Shown here one piece after another: positions 2,638-5,995 of a stretch of 64,000 bases of DNA. The stretch covers positions 70,900 through 134,899 of the forward strand of contig JAHJCO010000056.1 of NCBI GenBank assembly GCA_018831265.1, in the 5' to 3' direction. This stretch comes from Actinomycetota bacterium. Lineage in GTDB: Bacteria > Actinomycetota > Geothermincolia > Fen-727 > Anoxymicrobiaceae. Both the position numbers and the translations under genes were made by a program. The notes under the pieces were generated by a model. The model made no database searches. It had not been told where the DNA came from and saw only the letters and a program-made list of their open reading frames with translations. Position 1 is the first letter of the stretch, and every line of letters starts with the position of its first letter.

Positions 2638-3831
2638 GTGCTGACAGCCCTTGGGGCGCTGCGGGCCAACAAGATGCGCTCGGTGCTGACGATGCTGGGG
2701 GTGATAATCGGCGTCGGCTCGGTGATACTGCTGGTCTCGCTGGGCTCCGGGGCGCGGGCCGAGATAACCCAGACCATCCAGGGGATGGGCTCCAACCTGA
2801 TCGTGATCGTCCCCTTCAAGCTCGACCTGGGCAACACCAACTTCATGCAGCAGGGGGCGCCCCAGTTCGCGCTCAACAAGTTCACCCAGAAGACCATAGA
2901 GGACGTCGGCCGCGCGCTCGAAGACCAGGAGCGCGTGAGCGGGGAGATCCAGCGCTCGATGTACATGAACGCGAACGGCAATCGGTTCTTCGGGCTCATA
3001 TACGGGACCGGCTACAACGAGTTCGACATCCGGTCCCTGGGGATAGAAGAGGGCAGGTTCTTCAACAAGGCTGAGGATGACTCGGGAAGGCTCGTCGCGG
3101 TCATCGGCCGGACGGTCGCCGACGCGCTCTTCCCGGGGCAGGACCCCATCGGGCAGTTCATCAACATCAAGGGGCGTAAGTTCAAGGTGATAGGCGTCCA
3201 GGAGCTGAAAGGGCGGACCCTGTCCTTCGACATGGACTCCTTCACCTGGATACCCATGACCGCGGCCATCAAGCTGTTCGGCACAAACCACCCCAACATC
3301 ATCACCGCCAAGGCGGGCTCGACCGACTCGGTGGCCTCGGACGTGATCGCCATCGAGAAGGCCCTGAGCAAGACGCTCTCCTCCGACGAGTACTCTGTCA
3401 TAACCCAGAGCGACATCCTGGACTTCGCCCAGAGCATCACCAAGATACTGACCTACCTGCTGGGCGGGCTGGCCGGCATCTCCCTGCTGGTCGGCGGCAT
3501 CGGCATTATGAACATAATGCTGGTATCGGTGACTGAACGCACCCGCGAGGTCGGCATCCGCAAGGCGGTGGGCGCCAAGACGCGCGACATCATGATGCAG
3601 TTCCTGGTGGAGGCGGTGACGCTGAGCGTGCTGGGCGGGACCATCGGGGTGGCGCTCGCGGTGCTGGGCTCGGTTCTTTATACCAGCATCTTCCACCTCA
3701 AGGCCCAGGTCACAGCCTGGATAGTGCTGCTCGCCTTCGCGTTCTCGATGATGGTCGGCATCTTCTTCGGCGTCTACCCCGCGCGCAAGGCCAGCCGGCT
3801 CGACCCCATCGAATCCCTGCGCTACGAGTGA
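2638..3831 (+). CDS. ABC transporter permease, MacB/FtsX family
   Basis: RSVLTMLGVIIGV, GGIGIMNIMLVSVTERTREVGIRKAVGA, YPARKASRLDPIESLRYE; true start may be CTG at 2620. Confidence 0.95.
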   Translation: MLTALGALRANKMRSVLTMLGVIIGVGSVILLVSLGSGARAEITQTIQGMGSNLIVIVPFKLDLGNTNFMQQGAPQFALNKFTQKTIEDVGRALEDQERVSGEIQRSMYMNANGNRFFGLIYGTGYNEFDIRSLGIEEGRFFNKAEDDSGRLVAVIGRTVADALFPGQDPIGQFINIKGRKFKVIGVQELKGRTLSFDMDSFTWIPMTAAIKLFGTNHPNIITAKAGSTDSVASDVIAIEKALSKTLSSDEYSVITQSDILDFAQSITKILTYLLGGLAGISLLVGGIGIMNIMLVSVTERTREVGIRKAVGAKTRDIMMQFLVEAVTLSVLGGTIGVALAVLGSVLYTSIFHLKAQVTAWIVLLAFAFSMMVGIFFGVYPARKASRLDPIESLRYE

Positions 3832-3862
3832 CTAAGATAGGGGTCAGGCACGAGTCAAGTCA
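3829..3862 (+). repeat. 34-bp REP-like element, copy 1
   Basis: TGACTAAGATAGGGGTCAGGCACGAGTCAAGTCA; its TGA is the permease stop codon. Confidence 0.8.
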
Positions 3863-3886
3863 TTATGGGAGGATGGCGGTCGAACG

Positions 3887-4390
3887 ATGCGAAACGTGGA
3901 GCTCAAGGCCAGGTTGGACGATCCGGATGCGGCCGAGCGCATCGCCCTTCGTCTTTCAGGCTCGACCGCGCCACGCGTGCTCATGCAGGTGGATACCTAC
4001 TTCGTTGTCCCTGCCGGCCGGCTGAAGCTTCGGGAGGCGGACGAAGGCGCCGAGCTCATTTACTACCACCGAGGTGATACACCCGGCCCCAAGGAAAGCC
4101 AGTACAGGATCGTGCCTGTCGGCTCTCCCGGACCTCTCAAGGAGCTCCTGGGAGCGTGCCTGGGGGTCAAGGTGGTGGTGCGCAAGACCCGACGGCTCTA
4201 CCTGGTGGACTCGGTCAGGATACATATCGACGAAGTCGAGGGGCTGGGCAGCTTCCTGGAGTTCGAGGCCTTGCTCGGGGAAGGGGACCCGGCTGAAGAT
4301 GGCTACAGGTTGGTAAGGCGTCTCATCTCCGAGTTCGACCTGGTTGATGGAGACCTGATTGCCGAGTCCTACGGCGAACTGATTGACTAA
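3887..4390 (+). CDS. CYTH domain protein (class IV adenylate cyclase / CyaB-like)
   Basis: N-terminal ExK motif (NVELKAR), QVDTYF, LKLRE, IHIDEVEGLGSFLEFE, C-terminal SYGEL. Confidence 0.9.
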   Translation: MRNVELKARLDDPDAAERIALRLSGSTAPRVLMQVDTYFVVPAGRLKLREADEGAELIYYHRGDTPGPKESQYRIVPVGSPGPLKELLGACLGVKVVVRKTRRLYLVDSVRIHIDEVEGLGSFLEFEALLGEGDPAEDGYRLVRRLISEFDLVDGDLIAESYGELID

Positions 4391-4417
4391 GATCGGGGTC
4401 GGGCGGGATTCAGGTCA
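4384..4417 (+). repeat. 34-bp REP-like element, copy 2
   Basis: TGACTAAGATCGGGGTCGGGCGGGATTCAGGTCA; contains the CYTH stop (TAA 4388-4390) and, on the minus strand, the transposase stop (4415-4417). Confidence 0.8.
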
Positions 4418-5257
4418 TGTCCTTGAATAGGACCTTATCAGTCTGCTGATCTTCGTCTGATTGGTCCCGAGGAAGTCCGCGATCTCCGACTGCTTGTATC
4501 CGTGGTCGTGGTATGCAGAGAGGACCGCCTGATCATCCGGCGGCAGCGTGTCGCCGAACAGGTCCGAGAGGGGTCTCCTGATTGTGGCCTGGAGCGCTCT
4601 CCACAGCTCAGGCGGAGCTCCATCGGACCTCAAGCGCTCAGCCACCATCTGTGCATAGGAATCGGTCGAGAGAAGGAAACCGCCTCGCAGGTCATTCCAG
4701 ATGTTGTCTTCCAGGCCATCCATCACGAATTGCCTGTATTGCTCTCTGCCGTCATCCTCGCCGTTAGCGAAATATGCGAGGGTCTGGGCTGTCGACAGGA
4801 AGGGGTATTTCGCGTTGCCCCCGGTCGCCTGGTAACTGCTCCACCTCCAGAAACCCGGGTCTGATACCAACCCGGCCCGTACCGGATTGAGGACGATGTA
4901 CCGTGCGACCGCAAGGAAGTAACTGTCCTTCTCGACGACTATCGATTTGAACCTGCCCTGAAACACATGCCCCGTCCTGTCGCGCCTCTGGTTGTAAAGT
5001 TGTGCGAACCTACCGTTCAACTGCTGCATTCCCGCGGCCAGGTTCCCCACCGGCGTTTCGAGCAGCAGGTGGTAGTGGTTGTTCATCAACACGAAGGCAT
5101 GACAGATCCAGGTGAATTCACCTACGGTCGCTTGAAAAGTAGAGAAGAAAAGCCTGCGGTCGTGAGTCGAGTCCAGGATCGGGGCTTTGGCGTTGCCACG
5201 GGACGTGATGTGGTAGACGGCGTCAGGGTATTCAATTCGCAGCGGCCTGGGCATCAT
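4415..5257 (-). mobile_element. HUH/Y1 transposase (IS200-like Y1_Tnp, RAYT-like) with C-terminal HTH
   Basis: MPRPLRIEYPDAVYHITSRGN start, HUH motif NNHYHLL, GHVFQGRFKS, YIVLNPVRAG, WRWSSY (catalytic Tyr); C-terminal GYKQSEIADFLG HTH. Confidence 0.92.
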
Positions 5258-5329
5258 TGCCTCCTTTCATTCCCCAGTCCGACTATAACAAACCAAGCTA
5301 AAGCAGTGCAAGCGGAATTGGAATGGATG

Positions 5330-5398
5330 TGACTTGAATCCTGCCTGACCCCGGTTTTAGTCAGTGACTTGACTGCCGCCTGACCCCTGTTTGAGTCA
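5330..5398 (-). repeat. 34-bp REP-like elements, copies 3 (5330-5363) and 4 (5365-5398), tandem
   Basis: Minus strand TGACTAAAACCGGGGTCAGGCAGGATTCAAGTCA and TGACTCAAACAGGGGTCAGGCGGCAGTCAAGTCA; the TGA of copy 4 is the recR stop. Confidence 0.8.
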
Positions 5399-5995
5399 GA
5401 GTTCGCGGCGGCCGTCCATGGCGCGGCCCAGGGTGACCTCGTCCGCGTACTCGAGGTCCGCTCCCACGGGCAGGCCGCTGGCGATGCGGGTGACCTTCAC
5501 GCCCAGGGGCTTGAGCAGCTGGGCCAGGTAGATCGCGGTGGCCTCCCCCTCGGTGTTCGGGTTGGTGGCCACAACCACCTCGGTGACCGTACCGCCCTCG
5601 AGCCTGCCCAGCAGTTCGCGGACGCGCAGCTCGTCCGGGCCAATGCCGTCGATCGGGGATATCGCCCCGCCGAGCACGTGGTAGCGTCCGGCGAAGCGTG
5701 CGCTCCTCTCTATGGCGATCAGGTCCCTCGGTTCCTCTACCACGCAGATCACCGAGGGGTCCCTGCGCTCGTCGGCGCATACCCGGCACAGCTCGCCCTC
5801 GCAGACGTTGAAGCAGACGCCACAGTAGCTCACCCTGTCCTTGAGCTCTTGTATGGCACGGGCGAGCGCGGACGCCTCCTCCGCTGATACGCTCATGAGG
5901 TAGAAAGCGATGCGCGAGGCGGACTTGGGGCCGATGCCGGGAAGCCGGCACAGCTCGGCCACCAGGTTCTCGACGGGCTCTGCGTAGAACTCCAT
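5396..5995 (-). CDS. recR: Recombination mediator RecR
   Basis: [17 protein letters not shown]4 zinc finger, TOPRIM motif [24 protein letters not shown]. Confidence 0.97.

Follow-up and report, generated by a model that had tools for sequence, protein, structure and literature searches.

A TIRYT-like Y1 transposase gene and its amplified 34-bp repeat, which often supplies host stop codons, in an actinobacterial genome

A 64,000-nucleotide stretch of DNA from an Actinomycetota bacterium of the Anoxymicrobiaceae, hereafter the window, carries a gene for a tyrosine transposase of the Y1 HUH type that lies among four copies of a 34-bp repeat. The window comprises positions 70900-134899 of contig C34 (153,874 bp) in a 3.87-Mb draft genome of 64% G+C (G000). 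Comparisons were made with the only other genome of the same genus (G001, a metagenome-assembled genome of a sister species, also Actinomycetota, 77% complete, of which 1.7 Mb was compared) and with two metagenomic contigs, L239 (from the Joint Genome Institute, JGI) and L240, which carry transposase orthologues of 79% and 76% identity. Taking all the evidence together, the probable explanation is that this gene and its repeats are a TIRtron, that is, a TIRYT gene with its terminal inverted repeats (TIRs), whose unit has been amplified in trans to ~200 copies, with nicking at GTCA and left-end-first joining at TGA(C). In about 20% of the copies the repeat provides a real gene with its stop codon, and it is nearly always the left end that does so.

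Across the genome, the repeat pattern is matched exactly at 90 sites. Allowing 7-8 substitutions from the consensus gives 136-151 copies, and nhmmer reports 215 at E<0.1. The consensus reads TGACT ARRAYN GGGGTCAGGC RSN ATTCAAGTCA, i.e. TGACT-N6-GGGGTCAGGC-N3-ATTCAAGTCA. When the copies were aligned with 40 nt of flank, the information content was high across positions 1-34 and no different from background at -1 and +35, which sets the length of the unit at exactly 34 bp. Its constant positions are conserved at 96-100%, while positions 6-11 and 22-24 are variable, so that 203 of the 215 copies are distinct. The family is confined to this lineage. Allowing up to two mismatches, there are 138 copies in G000, 66 in G001 and none in 39 other relatives, and among ~185,000 representative species genomes, a list from which the window's own genome may be absent, the 34-mer occurs only in G001. 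A scan of JGI metagenome contigs for the 34-mer pattern gave no match.

Within the window, the degenerate pattern derived from the four copies matches exactly four times, compared with no match in 100 dinucleotide-preserving shuffles. Copy 1 (TGACTAAGATAGGGGTCAGGCACGAGTCAAGTCA; 3829-3862, + strand; pattern match, nhmmer E=3.8e-9) starts on the TGA stop (3829-3831) of a MacB/FtsX-type ABC permease gene (2638-3831, +; Pfam MacB_PCD and FtsX), whose three letters are positions 1-3 of the repeat. Copy 2 (TGACTAAGATCGGGGTCGGGCGGGATTCAGGTCA; 4384-4417, +; pattern match) is inverted relative to the transposase gene and holds the stops of two convergent genes. Its positions 5-7 are the TAA stop (4388-4390) of a CYTH-domain gene (3887-4390, +; Pfam CYTH 1.9e-16 over the full profile), and its positions 32-34 are the reverse complement of the TGA stop (4417-4415) of the gene for the TIRYT/RAYT-like Y1 HUH transposase itself (4415-5257, -; 280 amino acids). 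On the other side of that gene, and in its orientation, copy 3 (TGACTAAAACCGGGGTCAGGCAGGATTCAAGTCA; 5330-5363, -; nhmmer E=4.6e-10) and copy 4 (TGACTCAAACAGGGGTCAGGCGGCAGTCAAGTCA; 5365-5398, -) form a direct tandem with a 1-nt spacer. Positions 1-3 of copy 4 are the TGA stop (5398-5396) of recR (5396-5995, -; Pfam RecR domains), the conserved upstream neighbour of the transposase gene. An earlier note, written from the letters of the window, had described these four elements, their overlap with the four stops and the inverted ends around the transposase. Pattern search, reading of the sequence and the open reading frames (ORFs) bear out all of this, with copy 2 inverted relative to both copies 3 and 4.

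The transposase matches Pfam Y1_Tnp (PF01797, 4.9e-8) and, with 86.6 bits against a cut-off of 80, the NCBIfam equivalog NF047646, REP-associated tyrosine transposase (RAYT). Aligned to 4er8, it has the HUH motif H61-Y-H63 and a catalytic tyrosine, Y120, in an RYIVLNP motif; H61, H63 and Y120 are invariant in 40 homologues. Its AlphaFold2 model (mean pLDDT, the predicted local distance difference test score, 89.5) has as its best fold in the PDB the TnpA-REP structure 4er8 (E=2.6e-6; template modelling score 0.70 normalised to the target), followed by the TnpA proteins of IS608 and ISDra2. At the sequence level the similarity to Escherichia coli TnpA-REP is marginal (E=0.039). Beyond the catalytic domain, residues ~235-278 form a C-terminal helix-turn-helix (HTH). 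The last 98 residues match Sigma70_r4 at 25.1 bits (cut-off 24.1) and, weakly, HTH_23 and HTH_28; homologues have precomputed matches to PF13384, PF13518 and PF13936, and the modelled domain is helical with a pLDDT of 81-93. Compared with G001, the gene has a ratio of nonsynonymous to synonymous substitution (dN/dS) of 0.175 and is under purifying selection.

There are 13 Y1 paralogues in G000 including the window gene. They are 29-45% identical (45% for the best paralogue of the window gene) and each has private flanks; the 34-mer flanks only the window gene. The earlier note's proposal of a RAYT-like Y1 gene with its own dispersed repeat family is supported. Eleven of the others are full-length homologues (C37:24647-25507, C37:108017-108568, C43:27215-27961, C20:22204-22962, C20:36164-36934, C15:103129-103896, C52:15449-16279, C11:10053-10880, C21:3201-4016, C23:64132-64929 and C30:91809-92570), and a short Y1 fragment is on C54. 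Among the private repeats, to give two examples, GTGCAAAAGGGTCAGGCAC surrounds the C43 gene and TTCGCA..GGTGCCAGACGCC the one at C37:108017.

The 5-kb locus is collinear between G000 and G001 at 94% identity, with a transposase that is 93% identical. L239, which spans the region from the transposase gene to the permease, and L240, which starts within recR, have the transposase at the same recR-side locus with the same order of genes and repeats. Copy 1 is identical in G001 at the orthologous site, where L239 and L240 also have a unit; the G001 orthologue of copy 2 is nearer the consensus and is preceded by an 18-nt partial duplication, TGACTAAGATCGGGGTCA. Next to recR in G001, G004, G005, G011 and G012 there is likewise a Y1 homologue, or what is left of one, which adds three further genera to that of the window. 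In G005 the usual repeat of the homologue, GGGGTCAGGTCTTGAA, begins 2 nt past the recR stop, and in G015 a solo copy of the GGGGTCAGGTCTTGAA motif remains with the gene absent. Across species and genera the transposase gene diverges in step with its neighbours. It follows that the gene is old, single-copy and vertically inherited, as has been described for domesticated RAYTs (PMC5581495).

Outside the genus, related transposases carry related flanking repeats; their absence was one of the outcomes that the earlier note had named as refuting its idea. In ~90 homologue loci (Desulfobacterota, Nitrospirota, Beta- and Zetaproteobacteria, Atribacterota, Bipolaricaulota and others; 40-50% identity), inverted repeats bracket the gene. 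The outer boundary of the repeat is exactly the GGGG of GGGGTCAGG(T/A/C)CTTG..., with GGGGTCAGG inverted repeats at most of the 80-odd loci inspected for them, and in most the upstream repeat lies 43-44 nt before the ATG. At 23 homologue loci, the TGA of CCTGACCCC in the downstream repeat serves as the stop of the transposase gene itself. Copies 3 and 4 of the window, inverted with respect to copy 2, have GGGGTCAG as does copy 2, and this fits the motif GGGGWSAS. Di Nocera, De Gregorio and Rocco (2013; PMC3733652) described TIRtrons as encoding TIRYTs, with TIRs that share GGGGWSAS and in some cases overlap the 3' end of the gene ('3'ov'); Quentin et al. (2018; PMC6006769) equate TIRYTs with TnpA-Y1 subclass 2.1, defined by a C-terminal HTH. 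From its domain architecture and repeat motif, we assign the window gene to the TIRYTs. The earlier note had considered the motif to be different from the GTAG and CGTC classes of REP. It is indeed neither, but the system does not lie outside known classes because the motif is the GGGGWSAS TIR of TIRYT/TIRtron loci (PMC3733652, PMC6006769).

The repeats also share a pattern of recurrent breakpoints. At no fewer than 8 independent loci in G000 and G001 together, the first 13-18 nt, mostly TGACT-N6-GGGGTC(A), are duplicated in tandem before a full unit. A corresponding stutter, in which 6-14 nt of flank plus GGGGTCA occurs one to three times before the complete repeat, is found at 26 of 196 sites with the core motif GGGGTCARG in the homologue loci of many phyla (L007, L010, L039, L040, L050, L052, L058, L065, L080, L083, L091, L095, L101, L103, L106 and others). 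The stutter lies on the outer side of the GGGGTCAGG terminal repeat, and the short copies usually end exactly after GGGGTCA. Chance recurrence of an 11-mer within 45 nt is negligible. On the top strand the 34-mer ends in GTCA (AAGTCA), and so does the bottom strand, where TGACT is read as its complement. The stutter may be the footprint of the nick site of the enzyme.

To call genes throughout G000, we used a simple codon-usage ORF finder, which returned 2,880 genes and reproduced those of the window. Of the 215 copies, 32 end a called gene with the TGA at positions 1-3 and 8 more with the TAR at positions 5-7, with a few variant units overlapping at neighbouring offsets; right-end overlaps number 4 among all 215. 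The genes stopped in this way are ordinary and long (median 349 amino acids). For copies with a co-directional upstream stop within 60 nt of the left end, 32 of 59 have that stop at offset 0 (p=2e-41 versus uniform placement), and the enrichment at stops that the earlier note had anticipated for copies elsewhere is therefore present and exact. The overlap is also one-sided. Canonical copies show 34 left-end versus 3 right-end overlaps (p=1e-7), and for singletons an overlap is seen at 18 of 42 gene 3' ends that face a left end versus 3 of 36 that face a right end (p=7e-4). So strong an asymmetry speaks more for insertion directed to TGA(C) than for selection by itself.

The lengths of the host proteins are unchanged. 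In 16 of 17 family genomes, both with and without a repeat, RecR ends at the same length in GR.(E/D)(L/I/M)*, with TGA, TAG or TAA as the stop; in G006 RecR ends ...HRTPL*. Similarly, the permease C-terminus ...ESLRYE* has the same length in the repeat-free G009, G013 and G007. Six comparisons between the sister species involve a stop and a unit present in only one of the two, and in all six the position of the stop codon is unaltered. Three repeat-free sister alleles still have TGAC, two of them as gene stops and the third at an uncalled site.

A different hairpin repeat, CCCTCCCCCTCGAGGGGGGAGGGTCGGGGTGGGGGTG(ACCGTCTC), unrelated to the 34-mer, has 23 copies in G000 (e.g. C20:41807, C37:142224 and C60:37910) and none in the window. 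At two loci in G001 it occupies post-stop positions that are held by the 34-mer in G000. We considered it as a user of the same TGAC target and rejected this, given that its copies are not preceded by TGAC.

Most copies have company: 72 of the 215 are singletons, and among neighbours within 300 bp there are 42 tail-to-tail, 2 head-to-head and 36 direct pairs. A tail-to-tail doublet folds as a hairpin (-29 kcal/mol, z=-11.6). In 14 tight doublets (0-2 nt spacer), the triplet at positions 22-24 is common to both arms in all but one, and the arms differ at positions 6-11, where two hexamer types, ARGATR and ANAMCC, are found. By analogy, the tail-to-tail doublets may be REPIN-like hairpins that could replicate as doublets. 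A second class of doublet, with 19 copies, has a 29-nt spacer: a 34-mer of the AGGCYW...ACA type is followed by the conserved spacer and an inverted variant unit (TGACATTGAATTGAGCCTGACCCC). A conserved GAGCGGCCACAAAG stands in front of this composite, which in some places recurs every ~165 bp (examples in G000 are C28:35430-35700, C48:122460-122730 and C28:9330-9426). Another variant has the core GGTGCCAGGC, with 28 matches in G000. Units with this core and TGAAT...ATTCA ends replace GGGGTCAGGC units at orthologous sites (C10:4276-4321 and C48:149148, compared with G001), and they flank the 76%-identical orthologue on L240 (L240:61-94). Because the two cores are swapped in this way between lineages and GGTGCCAGGC accompanies an orthologous gene, they appear to be interchangeable variants of one family.

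Several other identities for the 34-mer were tried and rejected. A classical REP is excluded because the single unit lacks a hairpin, and the consensus has no GTAG. CRISPR, lox/FRT-like sites and attC were ruled out by the dispersed single copies, the absence of 13-bp arms and the Y1 association. The repeat does not behave as a MITE (a miniature transposable element with inverted repeats) of a DDE transposon either, given a terminal inverted repeat of only 5 bp, no flanking direct repeat and a cognate gene of the Y1 HUH type. The possibility that the hexamer at positions 6-11 is copied from the flank gave 25 matches versus 6.8 expected, but most of this excess came from tandem arrays and 5' partial duplications. 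Positions 6-11 and 22-24 do not covary, and the orientation of the units relative to the replication strand, judged by local GC skew and gene-strand bias as proxies, was not significant (p=0.46 and p=0.24).

How might such a family have arisen? We suggest that an ancestral terminal repeat (GGGGTCAGGTCTTG...) became the 34-bp unit in this genus and that the domesticated TIRYT would recognise its GGGGTCAGG core. The enzyme would nick 3' of GTCA, a motif that the conserved core contains and that each end of the unit has as well, on opposite strands. Nick sites placed in this way would account for the sharp TGACT...AGTCA boundaries, and the unit would begin with TGA because the complement of GTCA is TGAC. 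The 34-mer or the hairpin doublet would most likely be mobilised in trans, presumably by this particular protein, to yield singlets, tail-to-tail doublets and tandem arrays. New copies would be joined in one orientation, left end first, at a pre-existing TGA(C), in the manner of IS608-type enzymes, whose insertions lie 3' of a fixed tetranucleotide. Where genes are dense, the TGA(C) sites at which insertion does no harm would very often be opal stop codons, and on this proposal the element comes to lie on the stop without a change in the host protein. As a general rule for TIRYTs, that they nick 3' of (G)GTCA and join left end first at an existing TGA(C), so that the 34-mer homes preferentially to opal stops, we offer this tentatively and think it somewhat less likely to hold than to fail.

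A number of observations weigh against this proposal. Offset 0 is observed in 54% of cases while the availability of TGAC/TGA predicts about one third, an excess in odds of 2-2.5 fold (p=0.001 and 0.007), and because of this excess we conclude that selection or another bias also contributes to the overlap. The earlier note had named TGAC(T) as the insertion target; the left-end-only overlap, the unchanged protein lengths and the TGAC at three sister alleles speak for it, but the other repeat-free alleles carry TGAT, TGAA and, twice, TAG. The earlier note had also suggested a comparison of empty sites. No clean empty site was found among the many polymorphic G000/G001 sites, and because the whole intergenic spacer differs between the two species, repeat-free alleles, those with TGAC included, are not demonstrably pre-insertion. 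The two comparisons with TAR at positions 5-7 as the stop would require that the native stop's four preceding bases were overwritten, and a simple insertion 3' of TGAC does not predict this. Single units fold no better than shuffles (z +0.8 to -1.6), whereas characterised Y1 transposases bind hairpins. Identical copies are few, with no sign of a recent burst, and the stop-codon calls depend on a crude in-house gene finder. Both the nick site and the choice of target are inferred from sequence patterns only, and we know of no TIRYT or subclass 2.1 protein that has been studied biochemically.

Some of these observations could also be read without a target. If units landed at random between genes, selection and deletional compaction could remove the spacer until the last sense codon fused to the TGA or TAR of the element, which would act as an absorbing boundary. 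We consider this main rival unlikely, but it would accommodate the excess at offset 0, the TAG, TGAT and TGAA alleles and the wholesale turnover of spacers between the two species, as well as one truncated unit in the C20 cluster that is fused via its GGGG core to TA, giving a TAG stop. However, TGACT is read inwards from either end, and at the right end a TGA is available in as many as two frames. Pure compaction therefore predicts symmetry, and the strong left bias of the singletons (18/42 against 3/36) counts against it. In addition, there are very few copies 1-30 nt past a stop, and thus no gradient of intermediates, and host protein length is exactly kept in every comparison.

Two further readings seem to us very improbable, and to the same degree. 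One takes the 34-mers as the ends, or as miniatures like MITEs or palindrome-associated transposable elements (PATEs), of a still-mobile autonomous IS200/IS605 element of which the window gene is one copy. The Y1_Tnp domain, the 13 Y1 homologues and the fact that typical family members are IS-like, with terminal inverted repeats from GGGG enclosing promoter and gene, would agree with this, but the homologues are 29-45% identical with private flanks, and none of them is a second copy. Moreover, the gene keeps its synteny in other species and genera and has diverged there at the pace of its neighbours, its dN/dS is 0.175, IS608-type subterminal hairpins and tnpB are lacking, and ~200 gene-less repeats are found for one gene. 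The other reading regards the repeats as functional elements of the host (stabilisers of mRNA 3' ends, terminators or protein-binding sites) selected at stops, the flanking of the gene being historical. Such roles are known for E. coli REPs (PMC3733652). The invariant positions stay at 96-100% conservation while the variable ones drift, roughly half of the sites compared have kept their place in both species, and doublets fold as strong hairpins. Against it, single units do not fold, the 34-mer shows no T-run or intrinsic-terminator pattern and no known RNA family in an Rfam search, and the family is found only in the lineage with this gene variant. Furthermore, the conserved core is the motif that flanks homologous transposase genes in many phyla, and even the variant core GGTGCCAGGC accompanies the L240 orthologue.

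TIRYT/subclass 2.1 proteins are present in ~15% of the sequenced strains sampled by Quentin et al. (PMC6006769). In the published view, these proteins are without REP-like partners or have modest repeat families only: PMC6006769 reports no REP-like sequences near subclass 2.1 genes, and PMC3733652 calls TIR families 'moderately abundant' as dispersed families in a few genomes. The kind of system found here is already published, with its unit amplified in this case to a REP-like copy number. What is particular to it is the degree of amplification in an actinobacterial lineage, the non-palindromic and sharply bounded unit, the quantified left-end stop fusion without a change in protein length, and the GGGGTCA stutter across phyla.

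One gene, one 34-bp unit in ~200 copies and a sister species for comparison make an unusually clean natural data set. The recurrent breakpoints point to a nick after GTCA and the one-sided association with stops points to a TGA(C) target; both predictions can be tested with oligonucleotides. If true, they would open a first way into the mechanism of a biochemically untouched group, the second-largest Y1 HUH subclass, and the 34-mer would be an element that becomes the stop codon at about one fifth of its host sites while leaving the proteins unaltered. Some 40-50 genes end inside a repeat, and gene ends and intergenic repeats should therefore not be annotated independently.

Other features of the locus concern the transposase leader and the neighbouring genes. 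The leader (5258-5329, -) extends for 72 nt from the inner upstream repeat to the ATG and has a GGAGG ribosome-binding site. It also has a conserved stretch, GCTTGG-N-TATAGT, which from its sequence is likely to be the promoter; a simple sigma-70 scan of the leader gave no match. The stretch is kept in G001, L239 and L240, and the paralogues share a similar upstream motif, GCTTG...ATTGCT. On contig C34 there are no copies of the 34-mer beyond the four at the transposase locus; the genome average is ~1 per 18 kb. In the orthologous repeat at L239:1044-1086, positions 5-7 read TGG and not TAA. The L239 CYTH gene, as called, continues through the whole 34-mer and is ~12 residues longer, so that its stop falls within the 3' end of the transposase gene, with which it is convergent. 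In three repeat-free genera (L249, L254 and L255, from G009, G013 and G007, respectively), recR and the MacB-type permease gene are direct convergent neighbours 16-30 nt apart. Because of this adjacency, the transposase and CYTH genes represent either an insertion in the lineage of the window or a loss elsewhere.

Among known systems, the locus most resembles the TIRtrons. A RAYT-like Y1 HUH protein with a C-terminal HTH and flanking inverted GGGGWSAS repeats (here GGGGTCAG) is described in PMC3733652 and PMC6006769, and PMC3733652 also describes a downstream repeat over the 3' end of the gene, dispersed singles, dimers and clusters, and several divergent paralogues with private repeats in one genome. 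Here, however, the 34-mer has sharp bounds, with 11 nt of leader (TGACT+N6) added beyond the GGGG and an N3-ATTCAAGTCA interior, so that AAGTCA stands where TCTTGA... is usual. The ~215 copies in 3.9 Mb contrast with the 'moderately abundant' TIR families of PMC3733652, and PMC3733652 and PMC6006769, as far as we read them, do not describe either the left-end stop-codon fusion or the GGGGTCA stutter.

The REPtron of E. coli (TnpA-REP, 4er8, with its REPs and bacterial interspersed mosaic elements, BIMEs) offers the closest solved fold. It too has one domesticated Y1 gene inside its own repeats, and its intergenic repeats lie where genes end (3'), singly, in inverted pairs or in arrays; the alpha and beta arms of our doublets recall the Y/Z heterodimers of the BIMEs. 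A single-copy, vertically inherited gene with a high-copy cognate intergenic repeat is a trait of RAYTs and REPtrons that is also found here. In contrast, REPs are imperfect palindromes with a 5' GTAG tag, and the 34-mer has neither property; TnpA-REP has no HTH tail, and its sequence similarity is marginal. With the REPIN-RAYT systems of Pseudomonas, the family shares hairpin-forming inverted doublets as what appears to be a favoured unit, a single-copy vertical transposase and a lineage-specific repeat population with conserved and variable positions (PMC3116915, PMC5581495). The difference is that abundant flanking 16-mers were associated only with RAYT Groups 2 and 3, and the widely distributed group that is probably that of the window protein had low 16-mer counts (PMC5581495). 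The end of a dispersed repeat that overlaps the end of an ORF and supplies its stop has already been reported for GTAG REPs (PMC3733652). In that case the TAG comes from the GTAG tag, while the 34-mer uses the TGA or TAR in its TGACTAR leader, and the asymmetry and frequency of this overlap have been quantified here. Finally, IS608 and ISDra2 share the Y1 HUH fold and insert in a strand- and orientation-specific manner 3' of a fixed tetra- or pentanucleotide, which becomes the left junction. These elements are autonomous and multicopy, with subterminal hairpins and TTAC or TTGAT as targets, unlike a single 34-mer without a hairpin. Insertion of the IS608 type, with its fixed left junction, is the model that best fits an overlap confined to the left end.

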